From IMG/VR virus record IMGVR_UViG_2913112809_000002: a stretch of DNA of 64,000 bases, one strand, 5' to 3'. Made by a program: the position numbers and the translations under genes. The notes beneath the pieces are model-generated. The model did not search any database. It saw only the letters and a list, made by a program, of their open reading frames with translations, and had not been told where the DNA came from. The stretch comes from a virus (lineage: Duplodnaviria; Heunggongvirae; Uroviricota; Caudoviricetes). Every line of letters starts with the position of its first letter. Within the stretch, counting starts at the first letter, position 1. Of the stretch, positions 2,123 through 60,622 are shown piece by piece.

Positions 2123-2198
2123 TGGTGCTGGTTAACGGACTTGAACCGCTACCCATTCGCTTACAAGGCGACTGCTCCACCACTGGAGCTAAACCAGC
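2123..2198 (-). tRNA. tRNA-like gene, anticodon UGU (Thr) by manual fold
   Basis: 76 nt; acceptor GCTGGTT/AACCAGC, D-stem GCTC/GAGC, anticodon loop CTTGTAA, T-arm GGTTCAAGTCC, encoded CCA. Confidence 0.55.
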
Positions 2199-2203
2199 AT
2201 ATT

Positions 2204-2278
2204 TGGCGGGACAGCGTGGACTCGAACCACGATAAGAAGGTTAACAGCCTTCCGTAATGACCTTTATACGACTGACCC
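2204..2278 (-). tRNA. tRNA-like gene, anticodon GUU (Asn) by manual fold; one acceptor-stem mismatch, possibly degenerate
   Basis: 75 nt; anticodon stem GAAGG/CCTTC, loop CTGTTAA, T-arm CGTGGTTCGAGTCCACG, 3' GCCA; T:T mismatch at acceptor pair 4:68. Confidence 0.4.
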
Positions 2279-3176: not shown

Positions 3177-3838
3177 GCGCCTTCTCCCTGTACTTGAATC
3201 AATGTGAGGTTTCCGCAGAACACTGCGCCGGTATCGATATACATCTGGTTGGCAAACTTGAGTGGTTTCACTGCTGGCGTATGACCAAAGATGAACGTGT
3301 CCGCGCCTTTGATTTCTTTCACGATCCCGTCTTGTGAGTTGCTGATTCGTTCGCGGTTCCAGATTACCTGCTGATGATCAACTGGCTTTCCAAACTCGTA
3401 TTCGTCACAAGGATAATCGGCGTGGCAGATGACATATTTTTTATCTTTGCTCACCAGTTCGATGATTAACGGAAGTTCATCTGCTTTATGGGCAAGAGCT
3501 TTAGCCAGAATTTCTTTGTCGTAATCGAGATTAAAGAACCAGCCACCGCCATTAAGCATCCAGTGATTGACGTTTCCGCGCTCTGATAAGCCATCAATCA
3601 TCATTTGCTCATGGTTTCCACGTACAGCTCTGAACCAGGGGAATGTGATTAATTCCAGGCATTCGACGTTCTCTGTACCGCGATCGACCAAATCGCCAAC
3701 CGAGATAAGCAGGTCTTTTTTGGTGTCGAATCCTATCGTCTCCAGTTTTTTCATCAGGTTCGTGTAGCATCCGTGCAGATCGCCAACTACCCAAATATTT
3801 CGGTATTTGCTGCCATCAATTTTTTCGTAATAGCGCAT
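3173..3838 (-). CDS. ninI: Ser/Thr protein phosphatase NinI (lambda orf221-like)
   Basis: [23 protein letters not shown]...GNHE metallophosphatase motifs; start chosen at internal Met matching lambda. Confidence 0.85.
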
Positions 3839-13248: not shown

Positions 13249-13331
13249 GCCGCCAAGAGCGGCTTTACCGCATACCAATAATGCTTCACCCGAGGCATTT
13301 CCGTTATGTGTAAATAAATAAGGAGCACACC

Positions 13332-13472
13332 ATGCAATATGTCATTGCAGGGTGGCCTGTTGCTGGCTGCCCTTCCGAATCTTTACTTGAACGAATCACC
13401 CGTAAATTACGTGACGGATGGAAACGCCTTATCGACATACTTAATCAGCCGGGAGTTCCAAAAAATGGATAA
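13332..13472 (+). CDS. cIII: CIII (protease FtsH inhibitor)
   Basis: Manual translation MQYVIAGWPVAGCPSESLLERITRKLRDGWKRLIDILNQPGVPKNG matches lambda CIII. Confidence 0.85.
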   Translation: MQYVIAGWPVAGCPSESLLERITRKLRDGWKRLIDILNQPGVPKNG

Positions 13473-18591: not shown

Positions 18592-18755
18592 CCTGGCCTG
18601 AAGCATTCACAACGGTAGGAATTGCAATGGCGGTGGCGCTGGTGGTGTATTCGATTTGCCGCTGGGGTTGACGTAATTACTAATCCGGGGCTATATTTCC
18701 GACGCGCCAGCAAAATCTGGCGTCGGGATTAGCACCCCGGATGTTTACGGAGCGA

Positions 18756-18781
18756 TATGAGACGCGCCCGCGTCTTTTTTT
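18756..18781 (+). terminator. Intrinsic terminator ending early-left operon
   Basis: agacgcg-ccc-cgcgtct hairpin followed by T7. Confidence 0.55.
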
Positions 18782-18945
18782 CATATCGTTTGCACAGTCA
18801 CATTCGCGATTTATGGCGGGCTGTGTGGGGGAGCCGAAAGGCTCGCCGGTTTCCGTACCCGGTAGTGCTAACCCCGCACAGTTCGCCACCACGATGATTA
18901 GCACCTGACGGTGGCGATAATGTCCAAATGTACGGAGTAATCGTT

Positions 18946-19504: not shown

Positions 19505-19768
19505 AAATTCATTCCGATATGGGAATCCCCATATCGGGAGAATATTACCACCGGGGATAAAATGATTTGCGGTGAAAGGGAAGTTAAGTAGAATTGCTGC
19601 GGGTGCTTGAGGCTATCTGCCTCGGGCATGAATACCAACGGCAGATAGAGAAAAGCCCCAGTTAACATTACGCGTCCTGCAAGACGCTTAACATTAATCT
19701 GAGGCCATATCTATGCGACACATAGAGATTAGCCTCTTACGGACCGAAAGGTCAAGGAGAAGCAGGCT

Positions 19769-19924
19769 ATGAAGCAGCAAAAGGCGATGTTAATCGCCCT
19801 GATCGTCATCTGTTTAACCGTCATAGTGACGGCACTGGTAACGAGGAAAGACCTCTGCGAGGTACGAATCCGAACCGGCCAGACGGAGGTCGCTGTCTTC
19901 ACAGCTTACGAACCTGAGGAGTAA
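19769..19924 (+). CDS. hok: Hok/Gef family type I toxin
   Basis: Manual translation MKQQKAMLIALIVICLTVIVTALVTRKDLCEVRIRTGQTEVAVFTAYEPEE (51 aa). Confidence 0.85.
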   Translation: MKQQKAMLIALIVICLTVIVTALVTRKDLCEVRIRTGQTEVAVFTAYEPEE

Positions 19925-22744: not shown

Positions 22745-22820
<76 letters not shown>

Positions 22821-22823
22821 TAT

Positions 22824-22898
<75 letters not shown>

Positions 22899-34244: not shown

Positions 34245-35270
34245 ATGTCGATGTACACAACCGCCCAGCTGCTGGCGGCAAATGAGCAGAAATTTAAGTT
34301 TGATCCGCTGTTTCTGCGTCTCTTTTTCCGTGAGAGCTATCCCTTCACCACGGAGAAAGTCTATCTCTCACAAATTCCGGGACTGGTAAACATGGCGCTG
34401 TACGTTTCGCCGATTGTTTCCGGTGAGGTTATCCGCTCCCGTGGCGGCTCCACCTCTGAATTTACGCCGGGATATGTCAAACCCAAGCATGAAGTGAATC
34501 CGCAGATGACCCTGCGTCGCCTGCCGGATGAAGATCCGCAGAATCTGGCGGACCCGGCTTACCGTCGCCGTCGCATCATCATGCAGAACATGCGTGACGA
34601 AGAGCTGGCCATTGCCCAGGTCGAAGAGATGCAGGCAGTTTCTGCCGTGCTTAAGGGCAAATACACCATGACCGGTGAAGCCTTCGATCCGGTTGAGGTG
34701 GATATGGGCCGCAGTGCGGCGAATAACATCACGCAGTCCGGCGGCACGGAGTGGAGCAAGCGTGACAAGTCCACGTATGACCCGACCGACGATATCGAAA
34801 CTTACGCGCTGAACGCCAGCGGTGTGGTGAATATCATCGTGTTTGACCCGAAAGGCTGGGCGCTGTTCCGTTCCTTCAAGGCCGTCAGGGAGAAGCTGGA
34901 TACCCGTCGCGGCTCTCATTCCGAGCTGGAGACAGCGGTGAAAGACCTGGGTAAAGCGGTGTCCTATAAGGGGATGTATGGCGATGTGGCCATCGTCGTG
35001 TATTCCGGACAGTACGTGGAAAACGGTGTCAAAAAGAACTTCCTGCCGGACAACACGATGGTGCTTGGGAACACTCAGGCACGCGGTCTGCGCACCTATG
35101 GCTGTATTCAGGATGCGGATGCATTGAGTGAGGGTATTAATGCGTCTCCTCGTTATCCGAAAAACTGGAAGACATCCGGCGATCCGGCGCGTGAGTTCAC
35201 CATGATTCAGTCAGCACCGCTGATGCTGCTGGCTGATCCTGATGAGTTCGTGTCCGTACAACTGGCGTAA
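34245..35270 (+). CDS. E: Major capsid protein E
   Basis: MSMYTTAQLLAANEQKFKFDPLFLRLFFRESYPF... Confidence 0.95.
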   Translation: MSMYTTAQLLAANEQKFKFDPLFLRLFFRESYPFTTEKVYLSQIPGLVNMALYVSPIVSGEVIRSRGGSTSEFTPGYVKPKHEVNPQMTLRRLPDEDPQNLADPAYRRRRIIMQNMRDEELAIAQVEEMQAVSAVLKGKYTMTGEAFDPVEVDMGRSAANNITQSGGTEWSKRDKSTYDPTDDIETYALNASGVVNIIVFDPKGWALFRSFKAVREKLDTRRGSHSELETAVKDLGKAVSYKGMYGDVAIVVYSGQYVENGVKKNFLPDNTMVLGNTQARGLRTYGCIQDADALSEGINASPRYPKNWKTSGDPAREFTMIQSAPLMLLADPDEFVSVQLA

Positions 35271-35311
35271 TCATGGCCCTTCGGGGCCATTTTCTCTCTG
35301 TGGAGGAGTCC

Positions 35312-35707
35312 ATGACGAAAGATGAACTGATTGCCCGTCTCCGCTCGCTGGGTGAACAACTGAACCGTGATGTCAGCCTGACGGGGACGAAAGAAGAACT
35401 GGCGCTCCGTGTGGCAGAGCTGGAAGAGGAGCTTGATGACACGGATGACACTGCCGGTCAGGACACCCCTCTCAGCCCGGAAAATGTGCTGACCGGGCAT
35501 GAAAATGAGGTGGTATCAGCGCAGCCGGATACCGTGATTGATACGGCTGAACTGGTCACGGTCGTGGCACTGGTGACGCTGCATACCGATGCACTTCACG
35601 CCACGCGGGATGAACCTGTGGCATTTGTGCTGCCGGGAACGGCGTTTCGTGTCTCTGCCGGTGTGGCAGCCGAAATGACAGCGCGTAGCCTGGCCAGAAT
35701 GCAATAA
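35312..35707 (+). CDS. FI: DNA packaging protein FI
   Basis: MTKDELIARLRSLGEQLNRDVSLTGTKEELALRVAELEEELDD... Confidence 0.9.
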   Translation: MTKDELIARLRSLGEQLNRDVSLTGTKEELALRVAELEEELDDTDDTAGQDTPLSPENVLTGHENEVVSAQPDTVIDTAELVTVVALVTLHTDALHATRDEPVAFVLPGTAFRVSAGVAAEMTARSLARMQ

Positions 35708-55152: not shown

Positions 55153-57630
55153 TTAAAAATCAGTCTGATTAGGGATCAGTTTTTGCCAGATTGCTGAAAC
55201 GTATTTCGCCTGGTGGCGGGCGTCATCCAGTGCATTGTGGGGTACACCCTCGAACGGAATAGCCGCTCTGGCATCAAATTCCAGGGCTTTTCCCAGCTCA
55301 ACGATTGTGCGCACATCGCGATCGTTGTAGTAACGCCACGGACAGGGGATCCCCTGTCGTTCATGTGAACGGCGTAAAATCACGTTGTCGAAGTTAGCCC
55401 CATTTCCCCAGACCCGAACAAAAAATTCACCGGAGTTTTCGTCTATAAATTCACGCAACTGCAGCAGTGCATCATCCAACGGGATTTCATCGACCAGAAT
55501 GGCGGATTGCGCTTCGCGTGATTGTTTCAGCCACCATTTTATGGCGTCCCGATCAATGATTCCGCCTGCAGTTTCCAGATCAATAGTCTTAATAAATTCC
55601 GGCCCCATATCTCCGGTCTGCGGATCGAAAAATATTGCACCTATTGAGATAATCGGGGCATCAGGATTTTTTCCCATCGTTTCAAGGTCGATCATCAGAT
55701 GGTGCCACACCCTGCTGGTGGATGTGGTTTCATGATGACCGTTCACCTTAACTAAGGGATCAGTCGCCTCGCCAGTTTCATTATCGCTGACGTGGTCCTG
55801 ATCGCCGCCAGTGTTCTCCTTGTGCGGATGTTCAGTGCCTTCCATTTCCTCTGGAGCTTCTTCCCGAGATTCATCCTGATTTTCTCCATCGAATGTTTCC
55901 TGGTATGTTGCGTCGCCCATCACTGCACCACAATCAGGGCAGTTGCCACTGCCTGTCTGCCCGCAGGCGGTGCAAACTTTTTCCACTTCTTGTTGCACTA
56001 CTGGTTCAGGCTGTTTCGTTTCTGGCTCGTTTTGTAACGCATTTTGGCTGTTTTGTTCCGCTTTCTGGTCGTTTTGTTCCGTTTCTGTTTCTTGCAGGTT
56101 CTGGTTCACAGAATCGCGAGTCTGGATCCCCTTAACCCATTTTGGATCATTCGGGTCGCTAATCCCGTCAACAAATTCACCACGTGATACAGCAAGCAAC
56201 TTATCGGCGTCAGTCTGCTTGATATTGGCTGCCTGCATAATTTGGTTTACTTCGTCAGCGGTAACTTTTACCAGTTCCGGTTGTGCGATCGTGTCAGATG
56301 CACCAGTATTTTGTTGTGAACCTGAGTATGTGCCGTTTTTGCGGGCAAAATATTCTTCTTTCGTGATTTCAGTAGCCCCGGCAGCCAGCGCCTTATCCAG
56401 ACCTGAAAGTTTGTTTGCACGACCGTATTTTTCGCCATCCTTATCGGTGAATAGGAAGTAGAACGGCCCCTCACGCTCTACAGATGGTTCTGCTTCCACT
56501 TCGCATTCGGTTTTTTCGTTGTCCGGCATTGCCGTTTCCACTGCATTAGTTTCTGGTACTGGCGACGGGAGAGTATTAGTTGTGCTCTGATTTGTACCTT
56601 CATCTTCAAACACGCCCTTTGTAGTCAGGTATTCAGTGATGTATTTGTTCAGTGCCACGGGATCCTTGTGAATGTCGATCGGACGCTCACGGACAAGGCC
56701 AAAAATAGTCTGACGGTCATAGCGAATGGCATCAGGCTGTTTGCGCATTGATGCGGAAATACGCTTCCAGTCTTCGCGATCGTTCTCGATAACTTCATTT
56801 TTTGCCCAGCGATGGATGCTGCCGTCAATGTTTCCGGCATCAATGTCACCAGGCCACAGAGCGTAGGCCAGCTCATCATCCAGTGTTTTCCATGTCTGCT
56901 TGTATTCGCGACGAATGACAGCAGTGACAGGGGGGATTTTTTCTGCTGAGTTTTCAGTGTGCTGTCGGTTGACTCTGGCGCGGGCGAGATCAACAACAGA
57001 AGTATATTTCCCGGTTTCTTTTCGTTCGGCTTCGCGACGTTTTTTCCAGGCGCGTAATTCAGTCTGGATCTCAGGCCATTTTGCCCCCGGCTTACATTTA
57101 TGTTTAACCCACCCGATGGCGAACAGCTTAAGCTCCGGATACATGATGTTAACTTCAGGCATTTTCATTAATGCTTCAACGATATGCCCGTCGAATGTTG
57201 CCATGTCTTCCTGCAGTAACTCCTGTGCGCTAATCACCATATCAACGGTGATGTTTTCACATGTACCGAACTTAACCAGGACCGCGTTCTGTACTTCAAG
57301 GGACAGTTTGTCAAAATTGACGTTCATCGGATCGGATTCTGGTTCGACCAGGACAAAAGAAGCTGAGTTTTCATCCCAGCGATTTTCCTGCATATATTCG
57401 GTATCCCAGGAATCGAGGGCAGGGCGTGGCATGCCGGGCTTATCCTCACAGACAATAATTTTATAAGCGCAGTCCTGAGCTGCCGGATATTGCTCCAGGA
57501 ATAACCAGCCAAATTTAGCTCTTGCGCGGCGTTCGTCGCCGGCTTCAATGGCAGTGGCTACAGCAACAGCACCTTCTTCCTTTATTGCCTGTTCGTCCGG
57601 CATGGCGGCGCAAATAAAGACTTTACTCAT
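55153..57630 (-). CDS. RecE-like exonuclease with C-terminal DnaQ-like 3'-5' exonuclease-type region
   Basis: 825 aa; acidic low-complexity linker; C-terminal MIDLETMG...H..DD motifs. Confidence 0.6.
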   Translation of the reverse strand: MSKVFICAAMPDEQAIKEEGAVAVATAIEAGDERRARAKFGWLFLEQYPAAQDCAYKIIVCEDKPGMPRPALDSWDTEYMQENRWDENSASFVLVEPESDPMNVNFDKLSLEVQNAVLVKFGTCENITVDMVISAQELLQEDMATFDGHIVEALMKMPEVNIMYPELKLFAIGWVKHKCKPGAKWPEIQTELRAWKKRREAERKETGKYTSVVDLARARVNRQHTENSAEKIPPVTAVIRREYKQTWKTLDDELAYALWPGDIDAGNIDGSIHRWAKNEVIENDREDWKRISASMRKQPDAIRYDRQTIFGLVRERPIDIHKDPVALNKYITEYLTTKGVFEDEGTNQSTTNTLPSPVPETNAVETAMPDNEKTECEVEAEPSVEREGPFYFLFTDKDGEKYGRANKLSGLDKALAAGATEITKEEYFARKNGTYSGSQQNTGASDTIAQPELVKVTADEVNQIMQAANIKQTDADKLLAVSRGEFVDGISDPNDPKWVKGIQTRDSVNQNLQETETEQNDQKAEQNSQNALQNEPETKQPEPVVQQEVEKVCTACGQTGSGNCPDCGAVMGDATYQETFDGENQDESREEAPEEMEGTEHPHKENTGGDQDHVSDNETGEATDPLVKVNGHHETTSTSRVWHHLMIDLETMGKNPDAPIISIGAIFFDPQTGDMGPEFIKTIDLETAGGIIDRDAIKWWLKQSREAQSAILVDEIPLDDALLQLREFIDENSGEFFVRVWGNGANFDNVILRRSHERQGIPCPWRYYNDRDVRTIVELGKALEFDARAAIPFEGVPHNALDDARHQAKYVSAIWQKLIPNQTDF

Positions 57631-57723
57631 TTTGTTTTAACCTCATTGCAGATTTAAGGATGAACAAATCCCTGCCATTGCTGGCATATAAAAATGGAAC
57701 CGGATATTTACTGCAGGTCTGTT

Positions 57724-57915
57724 TTAAAGCCCTGCCGGGATTTCGCTATTATCTGTGTGAATAACTTTATCGACCGGATAACAGTTACCGGGAATTTTCT
57801 GTTCGTCTGCGGCGGTCGTGCATTCTTTCATTGAGCCGTATACGCCTGTGACCAGGTCAACAGGCTCTCCGGTATTAAGGAAAACTGTCAGAACAAGTGC
57901 AAATGCAGTATTCAT
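57724..57915 (-). CDS. ydfD: YdfD-like small lysis-associated protein
   Basis: MNTAFALVLTVFLNTGEPVD...KIPGNCYPVDKVIH.DN.EIPAGL resembles K-12 YdfD as recalled. Confidence 0.55.
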   Translation of the reverse strand: MNTAFALVLTVFLNTGEPVDLVTGVYGSMKECTTAADEQKIPGNCYPVDKVIHTDNSEIPAGL

Positions 57916-58100
57916 TGCAAGCATCCTTTTTTCATCAGGTTTAAGCGAGCCATCTTTGAAGCAATGCATACTTTATTTAATAAATCCGGCATGCGCTTTA
58001 TCTGATTAATGGCATCCTCAATAAAAGTTTTATCACCAGTTATAACGCCAATTTCAAAACGGGTTTCAGGCGTAGTGGAATTGAGTAATAACGTTTCCAT
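57912..58100 (-). CDS. dicB: Cell division inhibitor DicB
   Basis: 62 aa METLLLNSTTPETRFEIGV...EDAIN...LLNKVCIASKMARLNLMKKGCLQ resembles K-12 DicB as recalled. Confidence 0.75.
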   Translation of the reverse strand: METLLLNSTTPETRFEIGVITGDKTFIEDAINQIKRMPDLLNKVCIASKMARLNLMKKGCLQ

Positions 58101-58254
58101 TATCGCGTCCTCAACAATGAATTTTGTGATGCGGTGCCTGGTGCCTCCAGGTGACGTTAACCAGTTAACAATTAACGCCGGAGTATTTCACCCATAAGGT
58201 CGCTTGTTTTAACTGTTCCGCGTGCGCTTAGCCGCATTCACCGCATCACAAAAT

Positions 58255-58325
58255 TCACTTTAAAAAGGGCGGGTATCACAAGGGAAAACAAAAAACGGAT
58301 ACCCGCCAAAAGGTAATCAACATGG
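58255..58325 (-). ncRNA. dicF: DicF-like sRNA candidate
   Basis: Upstream of dicB; minus strand reads ...ccttttggcgggtatccgttttttgttttcccttgtgatacccgccctttttaaag (hairpin + U-run), resembles DicF 3' half as recalled. Confidence 0.4.
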
Positions 58326-58555
58326 GTTGTTGTAGCTGATTGCCACAACCGGAAGCGCACGGACGAAGATGCCGGCGGCACGCAACAGAGGGAGAAATAA
58401 CTTCGCCGTGCGCTTTCGTGTTGTGCCCTGACTTTTCAGGGATATATCCTTTCAGTAAACTGTCAGTGCCGGATTCTTATCCGTGTCCGGCGCACGACAA
58501 CACGCTGTCACGTGTGGTCTCCATTCTCAACCAGTAACCTCAATGGAGGATAAAA

Positions 58556-58764
58556 TGCCAAACAAACCAATACATCCGCTTATTGAAAAACAGATTGAAT
58601 GTCTGGTTAATCAACTCAGGCAATCAGGGTTATTAAAAACTCATTCAGAGCTAGGGCTCACAGAATCGGCATTCGACGATAAATTAAACAATGCGCTTTA
58701 TAATGGCATCATTGATTACAATCGTGGTGCTGGTCGCCGTGGCCCTGCTGGTACAGCTTTGTAA
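58556..58764 (+). CDS. Hypothetical protein, convergent with 58765..59403
   Basis: SD ggagga before ATG; 69 aa. Confidence 0.35.
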
Positions 58765-59403
58765 TTACCAGTTAATCCAGAGCGGATAGTGTTCAGCATA
58801 AATATAGCTATACACATCCAGGTTGTATTTGCGGTCTGTCCTTAGCAGGTCGCAAATACAGGCCGCAGCTTCCAGGGCAGCAGCTTTGTTGCTGAATAAC
58901 CATGTAGCAACATTCCAGCGATTATCTGTATCCCACTCTTTTGCGAGAGTTGACACCACGAAGGAGCCGTTGGTGTTGCCATCAAATACTTCCGTTTCCA
59001 GATTTTTAAGTAATGCCTGGTGAATTCTTGCCAGGTATTCAGTCGGAATTTCGCCACGAATTCTGATAAGGTTGTCATAAACAAACATATTCCCCGTATA
59101 TGGCGATTTTTCTTTCCTGCATTTTAAGCCAGCATCACGGGTAAACTGGTCAATTTCTTCTTCGGTTTGTTTCGTATTGATGTTTTGCGTTATCGTTTCT
59201 GCAATGGGCTTTGCTTTATTTTCTACACAATGATTGTTTGTGAACGAATCTGAATACAGTCCGGTAAAAGAATTGCGGACATGATTTGATAAATTTCTGA
59301 TGAACACTTTATCTACTAATATCATTGGGTTCCGCGCCAGTTGCGAGCGAATCACATCAGCGGCCATTTCCTGTATTGATATTGGTAAATCTTTAAATTC
59401 CAT
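58765..59403 (-). CDS. Hypothetical protein (212 aa) in early-left operon
   Basis: AT-rich ORF between ydfB-like gene and DicF-like region; no recognised domain. Confidence 0.5.
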   Translation of the reverse strand: MEFKDLPISIQEMAADVIRSQLARNPMILVDKVFIRNLSNHVRNSFTGLYSDSFTNNHCVENKAKPIAETITQNINTKQTEEEIDQFTRDAGLKCRKEKSPYTGNMFVYDNLIRIRGEIPTEYLARIHQALLKNLETEVFDGNTNGSFVVSTLAKEWDTDNRWNVATWLFSNKAAALEAAACICDLLRTDRKYNLDVYSYIYAEHYPLWINW

Positions 59404-59414
59404 CTTTAACCCCG

Positions 59415-59543
59415 TTAGTCGATAGATTTTGTCGAACTGGAAAGCGCCTGTTTAAACTCACTGAAGCTGAGAGTTTCTTCGCCTTCGGCAAGGCCTTCGA
59501 AGTATTCTTCGTAAGCCTTTTCCATGATTGCGTCGAAATCCAT
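59415..59543 (-). CDS. ydfB: YdfB-like small protein
   Basis: Manual translation MDFDAIMEKAYEEYFEGLAEGEETLSFSEFKQALSSSTKSID (42 aa). Confidence 0.55.
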   Translation of the reverse strand: MDFDAIMEKAYEEYFEGLAEGEETLSFSEFKQALSSSTKSID

Positions 59544-59544
59544 A

Positions 59545-59700
59545 TCACTCACCTGAGTTTCTTTCCAGCCAGCGACGTGCGCCAGCTTCGGTTTTAAACG
59601 TTTTGCTTTTGGTATACGTCATCGCGGTGAACGTACCGTCCTGGTTGGGGAACACGCCGCATACCAGAGATTCGTTGTTGCCAAGATCGATAGTATCCAT
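59545..59700 (-). CDS. ydfA: YdfA-like small protein
   Basis: MDTIDLGNNESLVCGVFPNQDGTFTAMTYTKSKTFKTEAGARRWLERNSGE. Confidence 0.6.
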   Translation of the reverse strand: MDTIDLGNNESLVCGVFPNQDGTFTAMTYTKSKTFKTEAGARRWLERNSGE

Positions 59701-59878
59701 GTTGACCTCATTTCCCCTTAACGCCGGGGTAGCGGAACAAAAACCTGCTGCATAGTTAAAGTTGAACCCTGCCGTCATGTTCTTACGCCTCGGGCTGGCT
59801 ACTTACCCCCTGACCACTGCCTGGTAACTCGAAGTATTGCCCTGCGTTCTGTGGGGCGGGGTGGGTTGGTATGCAATA

Positions 59879-59955
59879 AATCTAAAAGTATTTAGTTTTA
59901 TAGTCAAGGGGAATCTAAATTAATTTAAAAAAAAGGTCGGCATAACCGACCTTAA
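59879..59955. promoter_or_regulatory. OL-like operators and terminator downstream of cI-like gene
   Basis: aatctaaaagtatttagtt resembles OR palindrome aatctaaaaatacttagatt; ggtcgg/ccgacc hairpin with T8 on minus strand. Confidence 0.4.
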
Positions 59956-59974
59956 GTTCAAGGACATGGCAGTG

Positions 59975-60622
59975 TTATAGGTTGAACTGTACACCTTTTG
60001 CTACGGCAACAATTTTACACTCTGGCGTAAGCAAGGATGATTGATAGCGCGGATTGAGAGGGCTTAAATACACAAGTTTTCCATCAATAACTAATTTTTT
60101 TATAGTCATAGACGGTTCATTTGTAAGTGGATCTGGAACTATTACAGCGACAATACTGCCATTTTTATAACTTTCTCCTGGTCTTAGGATCACAGTGGCA
60201 CCAACCGGGATACTCGGCGACCCTGAGGGGTTATGCATAGTGTCATCAGGCATTGAAACGGCAAAATCACCTTCCACTACATCAAAGAATGTGGTGATCC
60301 TATCGACATTTCCCATTGTTTTCTCTCCTTCTAAGATTAGGAAAGAAATCGCGTCACCCCACGAAAAGTAGGGGATCTTGGTGCCTGGATTGCTCTGCAC
60401 AAAAGATAGTTCAGGAGACGATACTCCATACAGGAGATAGGACTCAGTAGTTCCTAATGCTTGGGCTAACTTACTTAGAGCTTTGCTGCCGGGTTCGTTT
60501 AGATCTTTCTCCCAGTACCCTATAGTAACCCCAGTCACGCCTGAAAGCTTACCCAGTTCTACCTGGGTGAGTCCCTTATCTTTTCTGAGTTTCTTAAGCC
60601 TGATGCCAAGGCTTTCCATCAT
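59975..60622 (-). CDS. CI-like repressor (HTH + S24 peptidase)
   Basis: 215 aa; N-terminal HTH LTQVELGKLSGVTGVTIGYWE; C-terminal peptidase-like domain. Confidence 0.85.
   Translation of the reverse strand: MMESLGIRLKKLRKDKGLTQVELGKLSGVTGVTIGYWEKDLNEPGSKALSKLAQALGTTESYLLYGVSSPELSFVQSNPGTKIPYFSWGDAISFLILEGEKTMGNVDRITTFFDVVEGDFAVSMPDDTMHNPSGSPSIPVGATVILRPGESYKNGSIVAVIVPDPLTNEPSMTIKKLVIDGKLVYLSPLNPRYQSSLLTPECKIVAVAKGVQFNL

Follow-up and report, generated by a model that had tools for sequence, protein, structure and literature searches.

The stretch of DNA considered here (the window) comprises the 64,000 nucleotides of the Caudoviricetes record IMGVR_UViG_2913112809_000002 in IMG/VR. It includes a small hairpin at the position where Escherichia coli K-12 has the gene for DicF, a small RNA (sRNA), next to a convergent pair of genes encoding proteins of 212 and 69 amino acids (aa); coordinates are collected in Table 1. 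DicF is the textbook prophage sRNA, blocking cell division via ftsZ. The hairpin and the gene pair lie in the early-left (dicB) operon of a lambda-like prophage carried by Escherichia sp. E4742; the E4742 chromosome matches the window and encodes a protein 100% identical to the 212-aa protein, and the same gene order was found on VATS01000001.1. Judged by sequence comparison, the hairpin represents a divergent (class III) allele of an sRNA and terminator already known; the gene pair, a real and common phage cassette, is not a recognisable toxin-antitoxin or defence system, and the dicB operon slots in which both features lie are modular and polymorphic. They were interpreted as two separate modules that recombine independently, i.e., a class III dicF allele without the known seeds and a cargo cassette in the ydfC slot, and this interpretation is considered probable. 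The homology, the allele classes, the loss of seeds, the selection on coding sequence, the distribution and the modularity were evident from the comparisons themselves; the result is not yet a demonstrated new mechanism.

The hairpin was formed by two 10-nt arms with 100% complementarity (GGCGGGTATC and GATACCCGCC, at 58268-58277 and 58298-58307) and 20 nt between them. On the minus strand, the element consists of a 5' tail (UGUUGAUUACCUUUU), the 10-bp stem, a U-rich loop of 20 nt (CGUUUUUUGUUUUCCCUUGU) and a terminal C-UUUUU (58262-58267). The 61-nt RNA has a predicted folding energy of -18.5 kcal/mol (z = -5.5), which was equalled by none of 200 shuffled sequences. The initial annotation had placed a hairpin with a U-run upstream of dicB on the same strand, and this was borne out by the perfect repeat and by its location 161 nt upstream of the gene; the extent and strand given for the element were corrected, since its sense strand is minus and the element proper covers approximately 58262-58322. 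In an alignment with K-12 and two loci from enterotoxigenic E. coli (ETEC), the hairpin fell exactly at the dicF position and the flanks were invariant. Like DicF, it is on the operon strand between the ydfC slot and dicB, as shown by K-12 alignment and annotation, and it has a terminator-type fold with a GGCGG/CCGCC base and a U-run. On these features it can be classed as a hairpin of the intrinsic-terminator type at the K-12 dicF position. A smaller, alternative terminator-like hairpin was recognised by consensus scan inside the class III hairpin, at 58294-58307 (-), comprising GGCGGGUAUCCGUU followed by UUUUGUUUU; during transcription, this might fold before the full 10-bp stem and compete with it.

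The suspicion that the element differs from K-12 DicF was confirmed using the Rfam model for DicF (RF00039; gathering threshold 48 bits). K-12 DicF scored 76.7 bits, class I' (L043) scored 61.1, and class II, at 34.1, was below the threshold; there was no match at E <= 10 within positions 57600-60000 of the window, nor for the class III loci L002 and L024. When the region was searched with Rfam at both gathering and permissive thresholds, DicF was not found, and the only match was a sub-threshold one to STnc100 over the dicB leader.

The slot was extracted from 159 IMG/VR prophage loci and from RefSeq, and genomes were counted among 5426 complete E. coli genomes. This showed that the slot holds discrete allele classes, of which there are at least five. 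Class I is the K-12 sequence and was present in 3975 of the 5426 genomes, while in class I' the base of the stem includes a compensatory U-A pair. Class II (GGCGGCATCAGTTTCATTGCTGGCTGATGTCCGCC) was found in approximately 160 genomes and class III, the window allele (GGCGGGTATCCGTTTTTTGTTTTCCCTTGTGATACCCGCC), in 163, of which 82 were at >=99% identity. Class IV (L091, L150, L159 and L169) kept the K-12 5' seed (UUUCUGGUGACG) with a different loop (UGUUUGCCCAUGAAC), and class V (L110-L112, L114, L118 and L120) has a short hairpin (GGCGGAAAUGGAUAUCCGCC). Thus, the 5' tail and the loop appear to have been exchanged as separate units among classes. In every class, the stem carried TTTGGCGG on its 5' side and CCGCC(C/A)TTTTT on its 3' side, and the classes were therefore interpreted as homologous alleles, rather than an unrelated insertion. 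Classes I, I', II and III had GGCGG(G)TATC..GTTT in common and all ended in CCGCCCTTTTT, the basal stem being maintained through C-G to U-A and G-U changes, and class III retained the TATC-GTTTT of K-12. Accordingly, the class III hairpin can be identified by alignment as a divergent dicF allele at the DicF slot.

The variant alleles have been counted as absences. A published survey (PMC3318445) recorded a loss of dicF in E. coli SE11, yet NC_011415.1 contains a 100% match to the class II allele at 1781400-1781471. In the open-access literature searched, DicF was represented only by the K-12 type and by copies more than 99% identical to it (PMC5069750; PMC7873438). No mention of natural DicF variants was found in that open-access literature, and an earlier mention elsewhere is possible. 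The missing RefSeq annotation at the class III site was considered as a signal of novelty and rejected, because canonical dicF was equally unannotated in the genomes listed.

K-12 DicF is excised from the dicBp transcript; a 190-nt form obtains its 5' end by RNase III cleavage, the 53-nt form is produced by RNase E, and the 3' end results from termination (PMC10448788; PMC5069750). The upstream stem in the window (58350..58418) is homologous to the K-12 stem, in which RNase III cuts the 3' arm: the K-12 sequence contains CCGTGCGCTTCCGG at L003:3239-3252, and the 5' end of the 190-nt precursor lies in this arm, at L003:3246. Between the RNase III stem and the hairpin, approximately 95 nt of the K-12 precursor are absent from the window (58309-58349, compared with L003:~3262-3356), and a long form of only ~94 nt is therefore predicted. 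Other class III loci (L002 and L006-L008) retained the ~95-nt segment. The window retains the RNase III stem, while processing and Hfq binding of the class III RNA are predictions.

The sequence upstream of the stem (58419..58554) was nearly invariant relative to K-12 and the two ETEC loci, and has a role on either strand. On the minus strand it belongs to the DicF precursor; on the plus strand it lies ahead of the opposite-strand cargo gene, to which it supplies a shared upstream region and the Shine-Dalgarno sequence (GGAGGATAAAATG). Downstream of the hairpin, the dicB leader also had a stable predicted fold (minimum free energy -61.3 kcal/mol, z = -4.6), and the 3' arm of its 19-bp repeat stops a few nucleotides ahead of the dicB Shine-Dalgarno sequence. 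The STnc100 match here scored 42 bits against a gathering score of 47. Since K-12 and other loci gave the same sub-threshold match, STnc100 looks like the Salmonella counterpart of the dicF-dicB spacer.

The known seeds of K-12 DicF are located at the 5' end, for xylR, and in the 3' region, for ftsZ and pykA (PMC5069750). Plain RNAduplex on full-length RNAs was uninformative and was replaced by accessibility-corrected duplex scoring of the -70..+40 regions of 63 K-12 genes, which was validated on K-12 DicF. In agreement with the literature, this control placed xylR first of 63 (pairing through nt 4-15) and pykA second (nt 25-43). For classes II and III, by comparison, ftsZ, xylR, pykA and manX were ranked between 19th and 55th; for class III, ftsZ was 55th, pykA 45th and xylR 37th. 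The 3' region of class III lacked complementarity to the ftsZ ribosome-binding site or to pykA, and its 5' end lacked complementarity to xylR, the K-12 5' seed being absent from the tails of both class II and class III. Retention of ftsZ pairing was specifically considered and rejected: a short UCCG/CGGA match was not above shuffled sequences, and the class III loop gave z = -0.7 against the ftsZ leader, where the K-12 control recovered the ftsZ pairing. With both seeds gone and pairing at background, class III was concluded to have lost the known DicF specificities. The proposal of a variant sRNA with a different specificity was therefore upheld in part; the element is a true homologue at the DicF slot and has neither of the known seeds, but target prediction for the variant seed gave nothing above shuffled controls.

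This last result weighs against a trans-acting RNA. The absence of targets above the shuffle null applied to the ftsZ leader, the 63 K-12 genes and the 64-kb window, together ~1.5% of a genome; in the window, a trivial antisense self-match was the only hit above shuffled controls. The two class III subtypes weigh in the same direction, since it is mainly their loops that differ, the stem being intact, and this fits a terminator better than a constrained seed. It is quite possible, therefore, that the class III hairpin is solely a terminator or attenuator before dicB, that is, a dicF remnant that has decayed or been re-stabilised, the classes being neutral variants with stable stems. What is conserved (the stem base, the perfect stem and the U5 tail) is what a terminator needs, whereas the loop varies, the seeds are gone and Rfam does not recognise the sequence. 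However, neutral decay would not obviously produce classes that are discrete and recur nearly unchanged, as class III does in the 82 near-identical genomes, nor the swapping of 5' tail and loop as units, class IV joining a new loop to the 5' seed of K-12. The stem for RNase III processing upstream has also been kept, and a U-rich stretch before the hairpin, together with the U-tail, is the usual arrangement for Hfq binding.

With respect to the gene pair, the initial annotation was accurate in describing a 212-aa reading frame on the minus strand and a 69-aa frame on the plus strand, with a good Shine-Dalgarno sequence for the latter and stop codons abutting at 58764/58765. It was also correct that K-12 has only ydfC at this position: K-12 annotation shows this 72-aa gene, on the dicB strand, between ydfB and dicF, and the YdfC sequence is unrelated. 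Both proteins gave full-length matches to PHROG families, the 212-aa protein to phrog_2151 (E 3e-97, 1-212/212) and the 69-aa protein to phrog_4274 (E 5e-42, 69/69), but since both families are annotated as 'unknown function', membership indicates no mechanism. The N-terminus of the 212-aa protein also matched phrog_1363, 6937 and 9419. The ratio of nonsynonymous to synonymous substitution rates (dN/dS) for the 69-aa frame was 0.09-0.32 against five diverged relatives, and variable sites were distributed 12/13/23 across codon positions; this frame had no internal stop in 24 unique sequences, while every other frame did. In the 212-aa gene, dN/dS was 0.07-0.33 in the C-terminal half and 0.56-0.65 in the N-terminal half. 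By these measures, both open reading frames (ORFs) are real genes under purifying selection.

The pair was present in 547 of the 5426 complete E. coli genomes, including O157:H7, and was always annotated as hypothetical. Homologues of the 69-aa protein were found in E. coli, E. albertii and Salmonella, the exact window protein occurring on 996 contigs, and both proteins were confined to Escherichia and Salmonella prophages. A tblastn search of 50,697 phage records with the 69-aa protein found nothing. The E4742 genome encodes a second 212-aa paralogue (P0241) in the same 90% cluster, and so probably carries a second prophage with this cassette.

The structure and homology searches proposed for the 212-aa protein indicated neither a function nor a specific fold. 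Neither protein matched Pfam, NCBIfam or PADLOC; a PDB profile search with the 212-aa protein gave nothing below E = 0.08, and a search of BFVD with its model nothing below 1e-3. The AlphaFold model of this protein was poor (predicted local distance difference test, pLDDT, 57.5), the C-terminal domain being only a generic alpha/beta sandwich of low confidence. The 69-aa protein was modelled as a helical hairpin (helices 8-24 and 37-61, pLDDT 75), for which no PDB fold match was significant. When 1.84 billion representatives were searched with a profile of the 212-aa protein, mostly relatives of the N-terminal domain were recovered, and only two distant relatives of the C-terminal domain. These two, P0173 (286 aa) and P0186 (220 aa), have in common an N-terminal domain of another kind (MFNVKRNG...), and in P0173 an XRE-type helix-turn-helix segment precedes the shared C-terminal domain, a hint of possible coupling between that domain and a DNA-binding module. 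Neither the name Ybl81, used for the 212-aa protein in some sources, nor the WP accessions were mentioned in the open-access literature searched.

Comparison among prophages showed that the pair occupies a fixed cargo site with exchangeable cassettes. The N-terminal domain of the 212-aa protein (~55-95 aa, MEFKDLP...NVRDAFTGLY) recurs on many small phage proteins with unrelated C-termini, while its C-terminal domain (98-212) is conserved. When the 159 loci were classified by the C-terminus of the forward gene (C) and by the convergent partner (P), the combinations were C1-P1 (62), C2-P2 (31), C3-P3 (9), C4-P4 (5), C5-P5 (4), C2-P6 (4) and C3-P7 (3). The 3' ends of the two genes in a cassette abut or overlap, with gaps of 0, -15, -41, -23 and -14 nt. 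Five unrelated partners (P1, P3, P4, P5 and P7) begin immediately after one conserved sequence of ~200 nt and a Shine-Dalgarno sequence, and this upstream sequence is the DicF precursor leader on the other strand. The variable unit accordingly has the shared N-terminal coding region as one boundary and the shared opposite-strand leader as the other. Other cargo was observed in the same slot in DEC5A and FDAARGOS_1077 (RefSeq). The P6 partner of L108 (148 aa) did not use the conserved leader; it has two predicted membrane helices and a weak PADLOC match (E 0.025) to the SLATT domain of defence-associated reverse transcriptase (DRT) systems.

The C1 cassette, to which the 212-aa gene belongs, was found with a class I DicF allele in 51 loci, a class II allele in 10 and a class III allele in 4. 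Since the cassette assorts freely with the DicF allele, the RNA element and the gene pair were interpreted as independent modules of a mosaic prophage, and the initial treatment of the two as one finding was abandoned.

It is unlikely, though worth considering, that the 212-aa and 69-aa proteins are a cognate effector and neutraliser (toxin-antitoxin, abortive infection or exclusion), belonging to a family of polymorphic cassettes. C-terminal and partner classes co-occur strongly, the 3' ends abut or overlap in every cassette, a conserved N-terminus with a variable C-terminus resembles polymorphic toxins, and the slot is a variable hot spot of the prophage. Adjacency would suffice for the co-occurrence, however, and the partners have been re-paired, C2 being found with P2 or P6, and C3 with P3 or P7. 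No member of any cassette matched a toxin, antitoxin or defence family in PADLOC, Pfam or NCBIfam; in PADLOC-DB 2.0, the best matches of this cassette and of the alternative cargo genes had E values of 0.007-0.04 over short stretches. The genes are convergent, unlike the co-directional genes of known type II toxin-antitoxin operons, and neither gave a specific fold match. Furthermore, each gene has been disrupted or lost on its own. Among 79 loci with the C1 gene, both genes were intact in 63; the 69-aa gene was frameshifted in an A-run beside an intact 212-aa gene in six, and almost wholly deleted beside an intact forward gene in three, making nine loci in which the partner was lost and the forward gene was not. 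Conversely, in some RefSeq loci an intact 69-aa gene accompanied a forward gene truncated at its N-terminus. A toxin-antitoxin or defence pair, as initially suggested, is consequently disfavoured. The deletion (L012, L075 and L081) removed the start codon to approximately codon 56 and left the Shine-Dalgarno sequence; a 1-nt deletion in the A7 run at codons 4-6 of the 69-aa gene was seen in seven loci (L025, L029, L035, L052, L060, L067 and L080). These losses may reflect real inactivation, phase variation or homopolymer sequencing error.

The convergent layout had also been taken to suggest antisense regulation, which is a reasonable inference from geometry only. In its strongest form, the plus-strand transcript of the 69-aa gene would be mainly an antisense RNA, controlling the 212-aa protein, the DicF-slot RNA and DicB through pairing or collision. 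The transcripts are fully convergent with abutting stops, the leader common to opposite-strand cargo genes overlaps the DicF precursor on the other strand, no terminator-like site was found on the plus strand before 59483 by consensus scan, and RNase III already acts here in K-12 (PMC10448788). Set against this, a consensus scan found no promoter, and DicF is made in K-12 and at other loci where there is no gene on the opposite strand. The 69-aa ORF is under purifying selection as a protein, so antisense RNA would not be the sole product, and a mainly antisense function is distinctly unlikely. It is extremely improbable that the 69-aa ORF is a chance frame and that the real plus-strand feature is a 32-aa hydrophobic ORF (58691-58789) encoding a type I toxin, because, although the peptide (MRFIMASLITIVVLVAVALLVQLCNYQLIQSG) resembles a small membrane toxin, its frame has dN/dS ~1 and stops in 2/24 unique sequences, while the 69-aa frame is constrained and stop-free, with a conserved Shine-Dalgarno sequence and a PHROG family, and the 32-aa candidate was rejected.

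The remaining features of the operon agreed with its assignment to the early-left region (Table 1). Read leftward, the order is repressor, pL-type match, ydfA- and ydfB-like genes, 212-aa gene, 69-aa gene (+), structured RNA, hairpin, dicB leader and dicB, followed on the minus strand by a DUF1482 gene (ydfD-like), an 825-aa YdfE/exonuclease gene, xis and int. The window DicB is 56% identical to that of K-12, and class III dicF alleles were found beside both the window type and the K-12-like type of DicB.

Table 1. Positions of the dicB operon features in the window
Feature	Position	Strand	Evidence or remark
dicB	57912-58100	-	Pfam DicB, E = 2.5e-28
Structured dicB leader	58101-58261	-	perfect 19-bp inverted repeat, 58118-58136 / 58239-58257
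DicF-slot RNA element, class III allele	58262..58322	-	synteny alignment, fold, inverted repeat
Conserved stem	58350..58418	-	arms 58350-58362 and 58406-58418, 13 nt, 92% complementary
Structured conserved leader	58419..58554	both	nearly invariant relative to K-12 and two ETEC loci
69-aa gene (phrog_4274)	58555-58764	+	GGAGG 7 nt before ATG; runs against the early-left operon
212-aa gene (phrog_2151; 'Ybl81' in some sources)	58765-59403	-	operon strand
ydfB-like gene	59415-59552	-	early-left operon, after the ydfA-like gene
ydfA-like DUF1391 gene	59545-59778	-	DUF1391, E 3.8e-29; leads the operon together with the ydfB-like gene
pL-type promoter match, TTGACT-17-TAGATT	59879-59907	-	consensus scan only
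Terminator-like hairpin	59933-59953	-	consensus scan only
CI-type repressor	59975-60622	-	HTH_3 and Peptidase_S24 (Pfam); upstream end of the control region 59879..60622

Elsewhere in the window, Rfam identified a c4-a1b1 / IsrK / C4 antisense RNA cluster (47-78 bits) at 18691-18893 (+) and a sok antitoxin RNA (101 bits) at 19601-19771 (+), which belong to another mobile-element immunity region. A lambda cIII thermoregulator element (86 bits) at 13319-13377 (+) and pairs of tRNA genes at 2126-2278 (-) and 22745-22895 (+) suggest at least one further lambdoid prophage segment.

If the interpretation as two independent modules is correct, loss of the CI-type repressor would allow the pL-type promoter to drive a ydfA-ydfB-212aa transcript. 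The class III hairpin would act as an intrinsic terminator or attenuator ahead of dicB and, together with RNase III and RNase E cleavage, would release RNAs of ~55-95 nt ending at the hairpin; any trans-acting function of these would operate without the K-12 pairings to ftsZ, xylR and pykA. The ydfC slot would be filled by the two-gene cassette, with the 212-aa gene forward and the 69-aa gene placed after the conserved leader and Shine-Dalgarno sequence. By analogy with lambda sieB, the 69-aa gene would be expressed from a start of its own while pL is off, and be opposed by convergent transcription after induction. A terminator and processing role for the hairpin appears likely, because the stem, U-run and position are the parts that are conserved; a trans-acting role is possible but unsupported. 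Several points weigh against this scheme. Termination, processing, Hfq binding, translation and the timing of expression were inferred, and for an efficient intrinsic terminator a loop of 20 nt is long. A consensus scan of the plus strand detected no sigma-70 promoter ahead of the 69-aa gene, inspection of the leader gave only weak candidates, and expression in the lysogen is therefore an analogy and not a result. Finally, the strong co-occurrence of C-terminal and partner classes opposes full independence of the two genes within a cassette and would suit some weaker functional coupling between them, although adjacency alone would give the same co-occurrence.

A broader reading joins the two modules, treating the DicF slot as a seed-swapping sRNA locus beside an undescribed cargo site with two facing 'expression platforms'; as a whole this is rather doubtful. 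If seed-swapping occurs, one processing and terminator scaffold would carry at least five allelic RNAs differing in 5' tail and loop, through which each prophage would reprogramme different host mRNAs, and class III would be one such RNA, so far unstudied, whose U-rich seed leaves ftsZ untouched. If the cargo site is as supposed, the platforms would be the shared N-terminal domain on the operon strand and the leader with its Shine-Dalgarno sequence on the opposite strand, and cassettes of effector and partner (for exclusion, defence or counter-defence) would be swapped between them. In practical terms, surveys that rely on near-identical copies or on Rfam miss, or score as 'lost', the ~5% of genomes with other alleles. 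A natural allele series on one scaffold, some members of which lack the ftsZ and xylR seeds, offers a route to understanding how acquired sRNAs change targets, and also bears on whether the conserved function of the slot is that of an sRNA or of an attenuator before dicB. The gene pair, present in about one in ten complete E. coli genomes, becomes a tractable candidate for phage-phage or phage-host interference once it is seen as one of several cassettes at a fixed cargo site with a conserved opposite-strand leader.

The closest known system is the Qin prophage of K-12, the dicB operon of which (ydfA-ydfB-ydfC-dicF-dicB-ydfD-ydfE) has the same organisation as that in the window. Class III shares with Qin DicF (RF00039) its operon position and flanks, a first half of the form TTTGGCGG..TATC..GTTT, an end in CCGCCCTTTTT and, upstream, the RNase III stem. 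It differs in that the apical half has been replaced, giving the perfect 10-bp stem and U-rich 20-nt loop; it lacks the 5' seed UUUCUGGUGACG and a covariance-model match, and ~95 nt of the K-12 precursor have gone. The cargo site can be compared with CdiA-CT/CdiI, Rhs-CT/RhsI and 'moron' hot spots, which likewise have a conserved N-terminus with an exchangeable C-terminus, an exchangeable small gene and a fixed site. Unlike CdiA-CT/CdiI and Rhs-CT/RhsI, the partner in the window converges on the forward gene instead of being co-directional with it, both proteins look cytoplasmic and are small, and loss of the partner is tolerated; no toxin or immunity domain was recognisable in cassette members using PADLOC, Pfam or NCBIfam. 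The arrangement of the pair has a precedent in lambda, where sieB (+, 34482-35036) and N (-, 35037-35438) are convergent within the pL operon and their stops abut at 35036/35037; the sieB of P22 is similar. Lambda SieB is a membrane-bound protein of ~185 aa that excludes superinfecting phage, whereas the 69-aa protein is a predicted soluble helical hairpin with no sequence similarity or family match to it, and expression in the lysogen has been shown for sieB and is only predicted for the 69-aa gene. The likeness is therefore one of layout: in both cases, an opposite-strand gene is situated within the early-left operon and meets an operon gene stop-to-stop, as it does at 58764/58765 in the window.

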